Shown: positions 54,870-64,000 of the stretch, piece after piece
Numbering within the stretch: the first letter of the stretch is position 1
How the letters are laid out: the number at the start of each line of letters is the position of its first letter
The notes under the pieces: model-generated
What the model saw: only the letters and a program-made list of their open reading frames with translations
The model's database searches: none
Told to the model about the DNA's origin: nothing
Source of the DNA: Chroococcales cyanobacterium
GTDB taxonomy: Bacteria; Cyanobacteriota; Cyanobacteriia; Cyanobacteriales; Nostocaceae
Direction of reading: 5' to 3'
Length of the DNA stretch: 64,000 nt
Assembly: GCA_038259325.1 (NCBI GenBank)
Contig: JBBSOX010000018.1
Location: 5,901 to 69,900 of the forward strand
Program-made: the position numbers and the translations under genes

Positions 54870-55672
54870 TGAGACATAAAAAAACTGGAAGCTATTCAAG
54901 TTTTGAACTTCCAGTAGTTGCTATATAAATTGAAAATTTAGAAAACAGATATAATCCAGGTTGGGAGGACTAGGATTAAAATAGTCGAAAGAGAAGCGTA
55001 TGAGCTACTAGTTCTACTAGCCACGATAGCGATTTCACCGTAACTTTTCTATTTCCGTTCTTGGTATTGGTGTTAAGCGTTTGCTTTATTAACTAAAGCA
55101 ACACCAATCACAAGATAAGAAGTTTTATAAGCATTGCTCGCACCGTCTGCAGTCGGTGAAAGCCGTGTAAAGTTTGGATTGGGAGAAGCTACCGCTCCAA
55201 ATTTTCTTTGCTCAGACTTCCTCGAAAATAGAACCACCAGTAGCAACGGTTAGATCATCAGTCTTGGTATAGGAGTTATTTACTCCATGAAATGCTGACC
55301 ACTTTTGTAATTAGTTTGATTTCTTTGATAGTCAGAACTAATCATTGAATTTATTTTTTAAAATTAACTTGCTTGCCGCCAATCACCTCTATTTTAGTTT
55401 AAGTTGTAGTTTTTATTAGTTTACCAATCTCGCTAGTATATATTTGCCATTTTGGCAGATTTTTTAAAAAAATATCAAATTAATCACTGCTATAGAAAAC
55501 CTACTATGCTAAAAATTTTAAATTAGCATAGCAGGCTTTCAGACACCCAATCAACTCTAGAAAAGAATCTATTGATTCCGAATACTTTTTAATTGAATCC
55601 ACAACGTTTCAATGAAATCTCTTGAGTGCTTTCTGGTTTCATTTGCGATTTGATTGATTGATAATCGTTAAT

Positions 55673-56062
55673 TTACTGTGCCATTCTCTGATCTAAACTA
55701 CCACCCCGAATTTCCGTTTTTTGCTTTCCGACGACTTCCAGATAAGCTCTGTCTTTGATTTTGGTTAAGCAACTGGATGATACATTACTCTCAGATAGTG
55801 CATCATTAGCATGTTTTAGGATTTTTATATTTTCACTTTGCTGTTGATTTGTCCTACTAGCTTTAGAGTTTTCTTTTAGTAATCGATTGTAGGTGCGATA
55901 TGGAATGTAATGGAGAGGATTATAGCCAGCAAATCGCAGCATTAAAACACATGCCCAGGAATATTTACCAGCAAGAATTGCTTCAACTACTTTGTCAAAT
56001 TGTTGAGCCTTCACTGTCTTATCTAAGTTACTACTAATGCCAGCGATGTCTTGATTAATCAT
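55673..56062 (-). CDS. HetP-family protein
   Basis: [45 protein letters not shown] is the HetP family core. Confidence 0.88.
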
Positions 56063-57092
56063 AGTTTTTAGGTGTCTGGGATGAAGTAAACTAGTTTAGT
56101 TTTTGCGATTATTTGTGTTTAAATTGAAGTTTACAAACTGCTTAGTTAGTAAAAGGTATAAATTTACCTTTTACCCTGTAATATGACTGGTAATACCAAA
56201 GCCTCATGTGGCTTTCGGTAGAGGCAATTTTGTTCTAGGAAAGTTTTTCGACTCCTAATTAAACAAATTTTATCTGTTCAATTGGTTGTACTTCTTACTA
56301 CTACTGAATTAGGCAGTTTCCGGGAAGTTTGCATATTTTTTTTGGGTTAGTAAAGAAAATTTATTTATCTTTGAAGGTTAACAACGCTATTCGTATATAT
56401 ACTATTTATTGTCGTTAATGTCATCTACTTAATTAGCAGATTAATAAGTTAAATTTACTGAATATCTTTGGATACGTAGGTATGTATTGTGCAACTTTTG
56501 ATTTTGACCCCTTTTGCTAATTGTTGAGGGGTCTAACCCCTCACGCAATATCAATTTAAACCTTTTATTATTGTCGAGTCACTAGAAAATATTAGCACTA
56601 ACCAGGAGGCAAAACAACTTCTAAAAATAGCAATATATAAAAGCTTGGTAAAACGGGAGTAGCCATAGTAATTGGAAATATTTTTAAAATATTCTCAAAT
56701 AGATGAGAATGTTATTTTTTAGCCTTGTATGCATTAATTTACAAAGGCTACAGCTTTAGCTTAACTAAATAAAATTGCTATGAAGTTCTCACAAATATTT
56801 CATGAGCATCATCACTAAATCACAGATAGTCTAGTTTTTAAAGATAATTATTTGTTATTAGTAATATATATAATTTTAATTATAATCAACTAAGTTAAGC
56901 AAAACGCCCGTGGGGGTATGCTGCCAACAAAAAGCGTAGCAGGATAAACCTATATAAATTAAGATAATTAACTAATAGAGAGAAAGCTAATTAATTAGAG
57001 AATATTGCTAAGTTGATTTAGCAAAAATTTATCTGTGTATTAATATCTAATAAATTTATATAGGTAAGATTATAGATGCAGTTGCAGTTTGG

Positions 57093-57932
57093 CTAAATGG
57101 TGATATGAGCCACTAATTGCCATGAGTTATTAATGAATACCTTGCTTAAAGAGAATACCTCTGTCTGGAACAAGGATCTAATCGACATAATGAAGGTGAT
57201 ACGAGCTTGATTAATCTGGGTTAAGTTCTGTTGAAATTGGCGTGCTAATTCTATATTTAAAGCACTAGTTGCTTTATCTAGAATCAGAATTGTTGGGTTT
57301 TTAATCAGTTTGCGAACGAAAAAAGTAAGAATAATTGCTCTGAGTGATTTTTGATAATGCCACAATATTTGCCAATAGTGGCTTAAAAAGAGTTTCTGAC
57401 CCTTGGGTGTATTCAAGTTTTCCGCAGGATCTAAAAGTAGGGCATATCCTGTCCAGCTAGCTTCAAACTGTGGACGCGAAAGCCAGTCCTTGCCTATGGC
57501 TGGATTACTGAATATGCGATCGCCTTTAAGCCAGACACCTATATAATGAATTTCTTGCCAATTAGCTACCCGCGGGTTATAATATGAGTCCAGCTTGCTA
57601 AGACTCGCCCTTACTGCTAGCGCTTCCAAAAGCAAATGAGTTGAGCCTTCTCCTTCAATAGTTGCGTTTGACGCAATTAGCTGCACCCGACCCTGGCAAA
57701 TTGAATACAGCAAGTTTCTATTGTCTTCAATTTTCCCATCTAGACCGTAGATAGTTGTCTCCTCGCCTAGTTGAATCTCGTCGAGAGCCCAAAGGCTAAA
57801 TTGAGATTCTAGATTTGTATCCTCTGCAACTAACCTCAAAAATCTGAGCATAGCCACTTTTGGAGTGGGAGACTGCTGGTTACTTGTATATTTCACATCT
57901 CCCCGGACTCTTAATGATGAAGAGGAGTTCAT
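57093..57932 (-). pseudogene. Collapsed peptidase-containing ABC transporter (HetC/PCAT-like), multiple in-frame deletions
   Basis: 279 aa joining a cNMP-like piece, a C39 tail (HY...NPAIG...WTGYALLLDP), the start of the TM domain, and the ATPase end (RKLIKNPTILILDKATSALN). No Walker A and a degenerate Walker B (DK for DE). Confidence 0.75.
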
Positions 57933-60983: not shown

Positions 60984-61141
60984 CGCCTAATGTTATAGCG
61001 TGCAGTTACGTCCATGAAGACTAGCGCGATGTGCGATTTTTCTCAAGTCGTTTGTTTGTAACTAGCAGCAGCCCAGGAAGTAGAAAAAATATAGAAACAT
61101 AAAACTAGTGATTACAATACTTGATATTTTTATATAAATAT

Positions 61142-61645
61142 TTAGCTTTGAGGTAGTAATTCTGTTTGATAAACTTTCACTTTTTTTGATCGGTTTAAAA
61201 TATCACATTTTGCTATAGATTGAACAAGATTTATTTCTCTATCTTTTAAGTAATGATAACATTGTGGCGGTCGAAAATCTGACCATTCTTCTCTTAACTG
61301 TTCAAGCTTAATTGGTGAATCAAAACTGAATGGTTTTTTAAAGAAAATAGCAAAAGCAGTTTGGGAATTTTCGTAGTATTTTTGAAAGCATTCATAGCTA
61401 ATTCCGCCCTTATCTTTAACAATTTTCCAAAGTTTATTCGGCGGCATTTCGATAACTTTTTCTACTTCAAGCACTCCAACCAATGCTTGTTCCGGGGATG
61501 TCGCGTAAACGAGAATCAGATCATCCTCATTTAAATAGCGAGGTCTGACACGACGAAACTCGACTTGCTTATCACCACCAAATATCATTCTTGCATACTT
61601 GTGGTGGATAGATAAAAGAAGTATATTTGGAGACATTAAACTCAT
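61142..61645 (-). CDS. ASCH (PUA-like) domain protein
   Basis: LLSI...YA..IF.GDKQVEFRR (GxKxxExR), VYATSP, F..PI.L..L, FRPPQ.Y.Y. Confidence 0.88.
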   Translation of the reverse strand: MSLMSPNILLLSIHHKYARMIFGGDKQVEFRRVRPRYLNEDDLILVYATSPEQALVGVLEVEKVIEMPPNKLWKIVKDKGGISYECFQKYYENSQTAFAIFFKKPFSFDSPIKLEQLREEWSDFRPPQCYHYLKDREINLVQSIAKCDILNRSKKVKVYQTELLPQS

Positions 61646-63777
61646 TATAGTATAGGATTTGAAGTTCCTATATTATATAATATTTTAAAGTTATTTGTCG
61701 TTATCTTGAAAGATGATTGTACTGAAATATTGCGTCCTAATATCTGTTTAATATCTTCCAAAATTATTGGATTTTTAAATAACTCAGTATCACTAAACTT
61801 GACAGCCATAATATCTTTATTTAGATCATTATCAGCTATTTCTAAAATGTCTTTGAAATTAAATACTCCAAGTCTTCTGAAGCGTCTATATAACTCTTTG
61901 GGTTTCCCAATTACAATTTCGTCAAGTCGTGAACAAGCTCGAATAGCTTTTAAAGTATAAGAACTATTTTTTCCAGTACCAGATTTACTTACATACCATA
62001 AAATTCTCCCTGGGGCCTGCATTGCACGCTTTGCACAGTAGTAAACTACTTCGCGTTTAAGAGCTATTTCTTCTTTAGATCCCCATAAAACTTCACTCGC
62101 CAATTCTTTATCGAACAAATCTTTAGCAAACCATGATTGAATGGGAATAATGAAAGTGGGAATTTCAGCATCAGCAATTTTAGCAGGATAAAGTATCCGC
62201 TCAATATCTGCCATCAGCTCTGTTTTACTGAGTAGACATTGATTTTCTAAAATTTCTACAAATGGAAAATATTTTTCATAGCCTTCACCTGATTCTTGAC
62301 ATAGATTAGAAATATATGAGGAAATATCTGCTGCATTTTGTATTATAGCTAAGTTAGCTCTTAACCATCCCTCTTGAGTTTTTATAAAACTATCTTCTTG
62401 AAGTGCAGCAATAGTTATATCCTCTAAGTATGTTTCACTGATTCTGGTAAATTGTCTTTGTTCACTAGCAGCGGTAGAAAAACATTGGAAGATACAGCGG
62501 CGTAACACAGTAGGCGTAAGCTTACTATCTATAAAACGAAAAACAGGAATTTTTAACTCGCCATTTTCTGATCTATCGTAAACTATTAAAGCTATTGGTT
62601 TTTCTTTTTTACGACCAACTGTAAAACATTTAAATTGTTTGGTATTTGAAAGTAATTTGCGAATCTTTTTTCTAAAATCAGATTTTTTCTCCCCTTGAGG
62701 ATTGTTTAAGAATAAGTCAATTATTGAATCTATCTCTCCACTCTGTATACGCTTTTCTTCTATATCAGTTCCAACTAAACGTTCAGGCTGGTATTCGGTT
62801 TCTCTACGGAGTTCATCTAGCCTAATAATTAAATCAATTGGATGAATAATTAACAAACTAAATTCTTTATATATGTCTGTTTCAATTCCTAGTAAACGTT
62901 TATCTCGTGTTACAAAGAAAGAAGTTTTTATACTGGAACTAATAACTCTTGCAATTTGTCGAAGGTCTGAATAATCGCTATCTTTCATGTCTTCTGGAAA
63001 AAATTTACGTATAGCCTTACAGGCTTGTTCAAATTCTTCTTGGGTACAAGGAAGAAATGTAAATTTGCTGGTTATTTCACGTAATTTTTTCCGTTTTTTA
63101 CTATCTTCATTCCTACTTATTTCATTATTAATTTCATTAGTAAGGCATAATTCCAGTTCTGGTTCTAACCAATCGGCAATTAAAACTTTAGATTCTTTGC
63201 CTTCTTCATCAAAATTCTCATCATCTACTAAATCAAAGAAAATATTTGCATCTATTGCCACACAAATCCTAGATTCAGTTTTTTGGTAAGCAAGAGTAGT
63301 TAATAAATTAGAATGGCCATAATCGAACCACCATTCAGTAAGAATGCTGCCATCCTTACTTTTTCCTGGTCTTTCATGGAGAGGAACAAAACCAAGACCA
63401 GCCCACATTCTATCTAGCTGATAGTCTCGACGACAGGATGCAAGAATACCGTATAGATGCTGAGTTCTTTTCCTTAAATCTTGGATAAGTAACTTTGTAA
63501 TTCCTTTATGTCGCCACTCTTGAGCTACACAAAGATGTGTGAGTTTTACTCTAGAACAACGACGATTAATCCCGTAGAGAAGATATCCAACACAACCTAC
63601 TTTTGGAGCTATACAGCCGAGAACGAAGCCTTCACCAGCAAGTCTACGGAAAGCTCCATACGGTAACGATCCAAGAGTTTTGGAATTGGCATCTCCTAAA
63701 CGCATTATAGTTTCCAGATACTCGGAATCTGGGCTAATTTCTTGAATGCTAAACTTTAACGACTCCCCTTTTACCAT
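61645..63777 (-). CDS. GNAT acetyltransferase - PIN nuclease - degenerate GNAT-like - EVE/PUA-like multidomain protein
   Basis: GNAT motif A LTHLCV..EWRHKGIT and WAGLGF; PIN acidic set IDANIFFDL / EINNEI / SDLRQI / FVTRD; C-terminal IIPIQ..FA..LF, ILWYVS, FRRLGVF, F.NPI.L. Confidence 0.8.
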   Translation of the reverse strand: MVKGESLKFSIQEISPDSEYLETIMRLGDANSKTLGSLPYGAFRRLAGEGFVLGCIAPKVGCVGYLLYGINRRCSRVKLTHLCVAQEWRHKGITKLLIQDLRKRTQHLYGILASCRRDYQLDRMWAGLGFVPLHERPGKSKDGSILTEWWFDYGHSNLLTTLAYQKTESRICVAIDANIFFDLVDDENFDEEGKESKVLIADWLEPELELCLTNEINNEISRNEDSKKRKKLREITSKFTFLPCTQEEFEQACKAIRKFFPEDMKDSDYSDLRQIARVISSSIKTSFFVTRDKRLLGIETDIYKEFSLLIIHPIDLIIRLDELRRETEYQPERLVGTDIEEKRIQSGEIDSIIDLFLNNPQGEKKSDFRKKIRKLLSNTKQFKCFTVGRKKEKPIALIVYDRSENGELKIPVFRFIDSKLTPTVLRRCIFQCFSTAASEQRQFTRISETYLEDITIAALQEDSFIKTQEGWLRANLAIIQNAADISSYISNLCQESGEGYEKYFPFVEILENQCLLSKTELMADIERILYPAKIADAEIPTFIIPIQSWFAKDLFDKELASEVLWGSKEEIALKREVVYYCAKRAMQAPGRILWYVSKSGTGKNSSYTLKAIRACSRLDEIVIGKPKELYRRFRRLGVFNFKDILEIADNDLNKDIMAVKFSDTELFKNPIILEDIKQILGRNISVQSSFKITTNNFKILYNIGTSNPIL

Positions 63778-64000
63778 GTAAATAACCTTTCTAAATCTCA
63801 GGATATGCTTAATTTTTCTATAGTAATCATATTTGATTTTTGAAAAGTCAAGTTGATTGAAAGTTTGCCAAATAAGGTTTTACTTATCAGTACACTTAGC
63901 AAATTTTAAATGGTATTATACCGATTACCTGTGAGGTTGCATAGAATAATTTGCTAAAACCCCTTGCCTCACCAAGGCGGATTTTGTGCAGCTTTACAAA

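Follow-up and report, generated by a model that had tools for sequence, protein, structure and literature searches.

According to Matelska et al. 2017 (PMC5499597), proteins of the PIN_15 and PIN_17 families carry a PIN domain fused to GNAT-like and PUA-like domains, and their operons contain the gene for a second PUA/ASCH protein. The same authors note that the GNAT associated with PIN has no motif A and suggest that acetyltransferase activity is improbable in these proteins. (PIN)-GNAT-EVE proteins that occur together with ASCH proteins, and often with an AAA ATPase, have been described near type I restriction-modification (R-M) and other defence genes, none of them characterised; ASCH-HsdS fusions and members of the class lying within type I R-M loci were also reported (Bell et al. 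2020, PMC7641849). Such operons have been regarded since 2013 as likely nucleic-acid-modification or defence systems (Iyer et al. 2013, as cited in these two papers). The PDC-M entries of PADLOC are multi-gene candidates that were found by their embedding in BREX, DISARM and R-M loci and are untested (Payne et al. 2024 preprint, bioRxiv 10.1101/2024.01.29.577857). Here, we analysed a two-gene module located at positions 61142-63777 of a 64-kb stretch of DNA (positions 5901-69900 of contig C18, the whole of which is hereafter referred to as the window) from a Nostoc-like cyanobacterial genome of 7.08 Mb. Judged from its sequence and from a predicted structure, the module belongs to the (PIN)-GNAT-EVE/PUA + ASCH class, PDC-M11 in PADLOC, and has one additional N-terminal GNAT domain, GNAT1, as an add-on. 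An earlier note on this DNA had already placed the module in a class that is known from comparative surveys and has no mechanism, and the descriptions of Matelska 2017, Bell 2020 and PADLOC PDC-M11 bear this out.

The large gene (61645-63777) and the ASCH gene (61142-61645) are both read from the minus strand, as are all the domains described below, and they are open reading frames (ORFs) of 710 and 167 amino acids, respectively. The junction of the two genes reads CTA TAA TG, in which one base is common to the stop codon and the ATG. This TAATG overlap (61643-61647), which the earlier note had pointed out, suggests translational coupling. The ASCH gene has a second in-frame ATG 9 nt downstream of the first one, and this is the start site in many homologues. 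No ATPase gene was found within the module or adjoining it, and the AAA ATPase that had been reported as missing is indeed missing from this locus.

The structure of the 710-residue protein was modelled with AlphaFold2 on 53 homologues. The model is confident, with a mean predicted local distance difference test score (pLDDT) of 88.1 and a predicted template modelling score of 0.75, and it can be described as composed of four domains and a helical linker, in the order GNAT1, PIN, degenerate GNAT2, linker and ASCH-like domain. The folded parts span residues 10-152 (GNAT1), 171-324 (PIN), 339-496 (GNAT2) and 541-705 (C-terminal domain), slightly inside the domain limits given below. When the whole model was compared with the Protein Data Bank (PDB) using Foldseek, the first match was the ASCH protein of Zymomonas mobilis, ZmASCH (5gus, E 3.1e-8, template modelling score normalised to the target 0.78), and many N-acetyltransferases came next. 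PDB searches with sequence profiles of the whole protein or of residues 331-710 gave weak matches to motif A of GNAT1 and none for PIN, GNAT2 or the tail.

Domain GNAT1 consists of residues 8-155 (63313-63756) and has the canonical GNAT order of strands and helices in the model; its assignment draws on Pfam GNAT matches, Foldseek and conserved columns. The acetyl-CoA motif RHKGIT that had been read from the sequence is present as motif A, R89-H-K-G92-I-T94, that is R89-x-x-G92-x-T94, and it is conserved in the family as R(85%)-G-x-G(83%)-x-A/T, the last position being alanine in 41 of the 53 homologues. It is followed by a motif-B-like Y119...G129-F130. In the window protein, Pfam Acetyltransf_10 scores 21.9 bits (E 1.8e-4), just under its cut-off of 23.6, while Pfam GNAT families match 50-53 of the 53 family members and the GNAT1 of a Prevotella homologue reaches 51.5 bits. 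Foldseek matches of this domain are Ard1, Naa60 and RimI, at E ~1e-7. In the large-protein family, an acetyl-CoA motif is found in no GNAT other than GNAT1. By its sequence and modelled fold this domain would be competent to bind acetyl-CoA, and it is apparently an active acetyltransferase. Residues C62, H81, C83 and C115 of GNAT1 are invariant in all 53 homologues; the three cysteines and one histidine lie in the core of the domain and could form a metal site or provide a catalytic cysteine.

The PIN domain comprises residues 170-330 (62788-63270), which have an alternating β/α order in the model. The four acidic positions that had been claimed for it are all there, as D176, E215, D271 and D292. 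The first two are invariant in the 53 homologues, and the third and fourth are acidic in 87% and 83% of them, respectively. The Pfam PIN_3 and PIN models match the window protein weakly (E 0.04-0.07, over the full profile length), and PIN_3 matches 24 of the 53 homologues, with a best E of 3.4e-8.

The PIN domain is followed by domain GNAT2, residues 335-498 (62284-62775). The earlier note had seen here a second divergent α/β segment; the segment is real, and its identity can be corrected to a second GNAT fold that lacks motif A. The order of its elements in the confident model, β1-α1-α2-β2-β3-β4-α3-β5-α4-β6, is that of the GNAT fold. In the 53 sequences, neither a conserved glycine nor a Q/R-x-x-G-x-G/A motif is seen in the β4-α3 loop, and GNAT2 is probably non-catalytic as judged from the model and the alignment. 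The hhalign comparison of the GNAT1 and GNAT2 sub-alignments found no sequence similarity, so the two folds are not a recent duplication and the assignment of GNAT2 is a structural one. A separate AlphaFold2 model of residues 331-710, made from a 7-sequence alignment, is poor (pLDDT 54), and its best PDB matches, GNATs and ZmASCH, are weak (E ~1e-3), with TacT2 among the weak ones. Since this construct does not include GNAT1 and its matches are still GNATs, it lends weak support to the assignment of GNAT2. The closest structural matches of the GNAT folds are the N-terminal acetyltransferases Ard1, Naa and RimI, together with SpeG, and not TacT.

The helical linker, residues 499-532 (62182-62283), has helices at 500-528 in the model and is the least conserved segment. 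The C-terminal domain, residues 533-710 (61648-62181), is modelled as a barrel plus helix and is the most conserved part of the protein, 26% of its columns being at least 90% conserved. Neither the Pfam EVE model nor the Pfam ASCH model matches any of the 53 family members. The domain is linked to ASCH by the Foldseek match to ZmASCH, by an hhalign match to the profile of the partner protein (E 1.3e-4 over 135 columns) and by the match to positions 319-474 of PDC-M11A, and we describe it as ASCH-like by profile and model, not demonstrably EVE. A PUA/EVE-like tail had been proposed; the PUA superfamily stands, and for EVE in particular there was no Pfam match. The predicted structure agrees with the earlier note on a PIN domain in the middle of the protein, and the model and its Foldseek match on a PUA-superfamily domain at the end.

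The partner protein of 167 residues is an ASCH protein of the ZmASCH type. It is matched by Pfam ASCH (PF04266) with E 2.7e-6 and 28.4 bits against a cut-off of 21.2. The ASCH motif, said to be intact in the earlier note, is so, as G24-x-K26-x-x-E29-x-R31, and it is invariant in 30 homologues. Y47 and F124-x-P-P-Q-x-Y are invariant as well, and the 30 sequences have 24 invariant columns in total. No helix-turn-helix (HTH), ribbon-helix-helix (RHH) or AbrB domain was found in the partner. A profile of the 30 sequences matched ZmASCH in the PDB (5GUQ, 5GUS, 5Y6B, 5Y6C) with E 8e-27 over residues 8-146. Reportedly, ZmASCH binds nucleic acids and cuts single-stranded RNA in vitro in a Mg-dependent manner, with contributions from Y47, K53 and S128 (PMC5615036). 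The partner has in common with ZmASCH (ZMO0922) the G-x-K-x-x-E-x-R motif, Y47 and the F-x-P-P-Q motif, and ZmASCH itself matches PDC-M11B at 3.2e-29. The two differ in that the position of K53 is mostly Q, sometimes K, in the cyanobacterial family, and that of S128 is C129 in the partner, a nearly invariant cysteine in F-R-P-P-Q-C-Y. They also differ in their surroundings: when similarity to the family profile was sought, ZMO0922 did not turn out to be the neighbour of a large-protein relative. The gene upstream of it encodes a 375-residue protein that has no Pfam or PADLOC match and no similarity to the large-protein family, and that may be another uncharacterised ASCH partner.

Two further observations concern the ASCH family. 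There is also a match (E 2.9e-11) between the partner and the C-terminal domain of NCBIfam PRK12279, in which ribosomal protein L22 is fused to an unknown domain, and this is a hint of a possible association of this type of ASCH protein with the ribosome. A more distant ASCH class (E ~1e-20 to the partner profile, 167-181 residues) is found in Nostocaceae genomes that do not have the large gene (G001, G018, G020, G061, G068, G129 and G131).

The two genes travel together. The ASCH gene is directly downstream of the large gene in 16 of 16 loci, at 43-94% identity, and in relatives the two genes overlap by up to 19 nt or are separated by up to 29 nt. Besides the window, the pair was found in Aliinostoc, a Chloroflexi metagenome-assembled genome, Leptolyngbya, a Nostoc lichen cyanobiont, a metagenomic chromosome, Anabaena, the Nostoc plasmid pCENA543c and Prevotella. 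Among 151 Nostocaceae genomes, 31 have the large gene, and 29 of these have a strong adjacent ASCH match; in the other two, the large gene is only a fragment or is cut by the contig end. The homologues are thus linked to ASCH genes at all loci examined. Furthermore, a natural fusion of the large protein with its ASCH partner, 846 residues long, occurs on two independent contigs, and its residues 701-846 align to the partner with 40% identity (E 1e-40). The pairing suggests that the ASCH protein is an obligate, co-inherited partner, and because of the natural fusion the two proteins would act as one stable complex in which ASCH is not a labile antitoxin.

Comparison with PADLOC places both proteins in the same candidate system. 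PDC-M11B matches the small protein with E 6.5e-34; PDC-M11A matches the large one with E 3.9e-13 over profile positions 319-474 of 486 only, its last third, an assignment made from profile matches of adjacent genes. All 53 large homologues match PDC-M11A, and residues 163-649 of the Prevotella homologue cover positions 3-458 of the 486. Because of these matches, residues ~165-710 can be taken as the published PIN-GNAT-PUA core, with GNAT1 as an addition outside it. In this core the window protein is like the published (PIN)-GNAT-EVE/PUA + ASCH class, having a PIN domain, then a GNAT-like fold without motif A, then a PUA-superfamily domain. The class and the present family also have in common a second PUA-like (ASCH) protein in the operon, a sporadic distribution, R-M, defence and TA neighbours, and an AAA ATPase downstream in some relatives. 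However, the window protein has one more GNAT, whose acetyl-CoA motif is intact, at its N-terminus before PIN, its C-terminal domain is detected as ASCH-like and not by Pfam EVE, and its locus has no AAA ATPase, which is optional in published descriptions, and no HTH on the ASCH protein. From PDC-M11, whose A and B profiles are matched by the adjacent genes, it differs in that GNAT1 lies outside the A profile and that no BREX, DISARM or R-M locus surrounds the module.

The large-protein family is very large, with more than 658 full-length homologues and 1,396 clusters (50% identity) at E<=1e-30; among the 150 clusters listed, almost all are ~700 residues long and match the whole profile. Most of its members are cyanobacterial, and others come from Chloroflexi and Bacteroidota. 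The distribution is patchy: the module was found in 27 of 138 good Nostocaceae genomes, several copies being pseudogenised, and in four same-genus genomes that were searched it is present only in the window's own and in one other. Copies are located on two cyanobacterial plasmids and on a 1.77-Mb Prevotella replicon. The family was not found in the records of the phage collection or in IMG/VR contigs.

The site of the module also differs between genomes. Three same-genus genomes (L030, L031 and L032) have in common with the window the GH116 β-glucosidase gene and the region upstream of it as far as 61047, after which they diverge. The 3' flank of the cassette (61048-61141) begins at this point, same-genus genomes without the module losing homology at 61047/61048 in blastn comparisons with these three. 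At the GH116 site, alternative cargo consists of YefM and HicAB pairs with a RAYT-like transposase, of a YefM-like gene accompanied by a pair of dynamin-like GTPases, of which one matches PADLOC LeoBC (1.4e-10), or of a 1,063-residue NACHT-WD40 protein. Module-bearing Nostoc relatives (94% identity) have the segment 58500-63918 in common with the window and are different further upstream. Because genomes without the module carry other cargo and the bearers differ upstream, the site beside the GH116 gene (60984-61047) can be regarded as a variable-cargo hotspot. No flanking direct or inverted repeats indicating site-specific insertion were found around the module. In a distant Leptolyngbya (L033:14560-17493), a GH116 gene is four genes from the pair, and toxin genes (PemK and HigB) lie in between; this proximity could be a coincidence or an old hotspot.

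The composition of the module is foreign to the genome. Its GC content is 33.8%, against 41.7% for the genome, and falls at the 0.9th percentile of 13,118 genome windows of equal size. HIP1 (GCGATCGC) has 61 sites in the 64-kb window, where 0.3 would be expected by chance, and the module is spanned by a HIP1-free gap of 5,146 bp (59905-65051), larger gaps making up only 1.3% genome-wide. Low GC by itself reduces the chance of a HIP1 site; the foreign composition is real despite this caveat, and the AT-rich block without HIP1 between 61 and 64 kb was correctly described in the earlier note. From this sequence evidence, the module is most simply described as an accessory, horizontally acquired element. 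A second low-GC stretch (0.29-0.35) lies at 55000-57100 in the window; it has almost no ORFs longer than 70 residues and is 73-87% identical in relatives.

Upstream of the large gene, the 5' leader and upstream region (63778-64000, minus strand) are 92% conserved with the module-bearing Nostoc relatives up to ~63918, and the best promoter-like site is just past the window end (~64017-64046). Metatranscriptome contigs of microbial mats, which derive from a relative with ~93-94% identity to the window, extend over the entire large gene, the ASCH gene and their junction (61441-61665), and diverge from the window past 63856. They fit co-transcription of the pair; contaminating DNA is also possible.

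The neighbours of the pair at other loci are diverse. In the Nostoc lichen cyanobiont (L034:12654-15418), McrB and McrC are directly downstream on the same strand, and on the Nostoc plasmid pCENA543c (L037:3125-4411) a McrB-like AAA_5 ATPase is directly downstream on the same strand, adjoining insertion sequence genes. With a McrB-like ATPase directly after the pair at two loci, the pair together with the ATPase and McrC may be a four-gene version of the system. In Anabaena, one unrelated gene separates the pair from a PD-T4-4 system (PD-T4-4_A, 2.6e-62). In Prevotella, genes for an ABC-type ATPase and a HNH nuclease are upstream, and VapE and Toprim genes are downstream. Several loci have ParE, PemK, HigB, PIN_10/DUF433 or MNT toxin-antitoxin genes. 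The window's own contig has VapC with a small upstream ORF just past the window end, where a divergently oriented vapBC-like pair (contig 70234-70856) consists of a 134-residue PIN protein (PF01850, 8.6e-17) preceded by a 51-residue ORF with no Pfam match; a gene for a UPF0182 membrane protein comes after it. Aliinostoc has housekeeping genes only.

We favour, tentatively and at a little under an even chance, the reading that these genes are a horizontally acquired two-gene conflict module of the (PIN)-GNAT-PUA + ASCH class, a candidate for an anti-phage or a toxin-like system in which ASCH is an obligate subunit. The defence or TA role proposed in the earlier note finds support in the patchy distribution, the variable hotspot and the defence and TA neighbours. 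The large protein would be the effector. In it, GNAT2 would probably be a scaffold or a substrate-binding module, and the C-terminal ASCH-like domain would bind nucleic acid. Translational coupling would supply the small ZmASCH-type protein in a fixed ratio, as an obligate partner subunit and not a labile antitoxin. The two PUA-like domains would jointly recognise a feature of RNA, perhaps that of a modified or a foreign nucleic acid, and this recognition would gate the catalytic domains, PIN and perhaps GNAT1. Cleavage by PIN, perhaps together with acetylation by GNAT1, of cellular or invader RNA would then lead to the arrest of growth or of infection. In this scheme, we infer the formation of the complex, the RNA target, the gating and the phenotype.

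Several points weigh against this reading. PDC-M11 is explicitly an untested candidate, and a full-text literature search found no experimental paper on the class. We infer complex formation from the fusion and the gene pairing. Of the residues that contribute to the RNase activity of ZmASCH, only Y47 is kept in the cyanobacterial family. The third or fourth acidic residue of PIN is missing in ~10-15% of family members, and for this reason the family may be able to do without PIN catalysis. Several contexts, such as that in Aliinostoc, are plain housekeeping neighbourhoods, and proximity to TA genes is weak evidence in genomes as rich in TA pairs as those of cyanobacteria. Finally, the absence of the family from phage collections fits a host-side role and gives no trigger.

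Of the alternatives, a classical type II TA pair, in which the large protein is the toxin through PIN and/or GNAT1 and ASCH is a labile antitoxin whose loss frees it, survives best, and we still consider it unlikely. PIN and GNAT domains are common in TA toxins, and a TA interpretation is given in PMC5499597 and PMC7641849; the operon is tightly coupled and has two genes; the module is patchy, lies among other TA pairs and is also found on plasmids; and an alpha-proteobacterial ASCH is fused to HTH, like an autoregulating antitoxin (PMC7641849). The natural fusion, however, is hard to square with differential stability, and the antitoxin role that the earlier note gave to ASCH sits awkwardly with it. 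The partner, moreover, has no DNA-binding domain and is encoded downstream, its 24 invariant columns make it as conserved as the effector, when antitoxins usually evolve fast, and its solved homologue is itself a nucleic-acid-binding enzyme. Like VapBC pairs, the module is a small and mobile operon with tight coupling, and its PIN is VapC-like and has four acidic residues, but this PIN lies inside a four-domain protein of 710 residues, its partner is a downstream ASCH without a DNA-binding fold, and fused forms exist. With the GNAT toxins TacT, AtaT and ItaT, which acetylate aminoacyl-tRNA, it has in common a TA-like context and a GNAT fold that carries motif A, but its GNAT folds are nearest to N-terminal acetyltransferases and SpeG, and there is no RHH or DUF1778 antitoxin.

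A bolder reading, which we consider decidedly unlikely, takes GNAT1 as an active enzyme that acetylates RNA or aminoacyl-tRNA and was added to a more ancient PIN-pseudoGNAT-PUA sensor. The ASCH-like domains, in cis and in trans, would read a base modification, either an acetyl mark or a phage-specific one, and license cleavage by PIN. If true, RNA immunity would here be provided by a two-gene "mark, read and cut" mechanism that is self-contained and has no ATPase. The write-read-erase model of the earlier note, that GNAT1 writes an acetyl mark on RNA, such as N4-acetylcytidine (ac4C), that the ASCH domains read or remove it, and that PIN cuts the marked or unmarked RNA, is very unlikely in our view. 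It accords with the motif A and motif B tyrosine kept in GNAT1, with the presence of two PUA-superfamily domains and with the hydrolysis of N4-acylcytidines by some ASCH proteins (review PMC12707154). The partner, however, groups with ZmASCH, and YqfB (1TE7) is not among the 9 PDB sequences that its profile matched at E<=1; with the YqfB-type N4-acylcytidine amidohydrolases it has the ASCH fold in common, but no relationship to them was detected at the sequence level. The erasure of ac4C by ASCH, which had been put forward earlier, thus found no support. Moreover, because PIN-GNAT-EVE relatives without GNAT1 have a degenerate GNAT only, the class cannot have had acetylation as its ancestral core.

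A DNA-directed function, in the sense of Iyer et al. 2013, would have the GNAT modify DNA bases, or the ASCH domains read modified DNA, alongside modification-dependent restriction enzymes. The McrBC or McrB-like ATPase directly downstream of the pair in two relatives, the occurrence of the class in type I R-M and as ASCH-HsdS fusions (PMC7641849), and the definition of PDC-M11 by embedding in BREX, DISARM and R-M would all suit it. We nevertheless find it highly doubtful, as VapC-type PIN domains are RNases, the closest solved ASCH cuts single-stranded RNA, and neither R-M nor McrBC genes adjoin the window locus. A housekeeping enzyme for tRNA or rRNA processing or modification with an RNA-binding accessory subunit has an equally slim chance: PUA/ASCH domains are characteristic of the translation machinery, the L22 fusion has a C-terminal domain to which the partner is similar, some loci lie among housekeeping genes and the genes appear to be transcribed in mats, but the module is present in only ~20% of Nostocaceae genomes, is missing from two of the four same-genus genomes, and has pseudogenised and plasmid copies, a foreign composition and a place in a variable hotspot.

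The class is already described computationally, and this locus is a variant of it with an extra, apparently active GNAT1. It is a minimal two-gene version, without the ATPase, from a very large family, and its partner is linked to ZmASCH, the only homologue that has been solved and assayed. The active-looking N-terminal GNAT, set against the degenerate internal one, qualifies the published view that these proteins probably have no acetyltransferase activity. The domain map offers residues that can be mutated: D176 and E215 in PIN, R89, G92 and Y119 in GNAT1, and Y47 and C129 in the partner. The value of the locus lies not in a new principle, but in an old question made testable and in a compact entry point for experiments.

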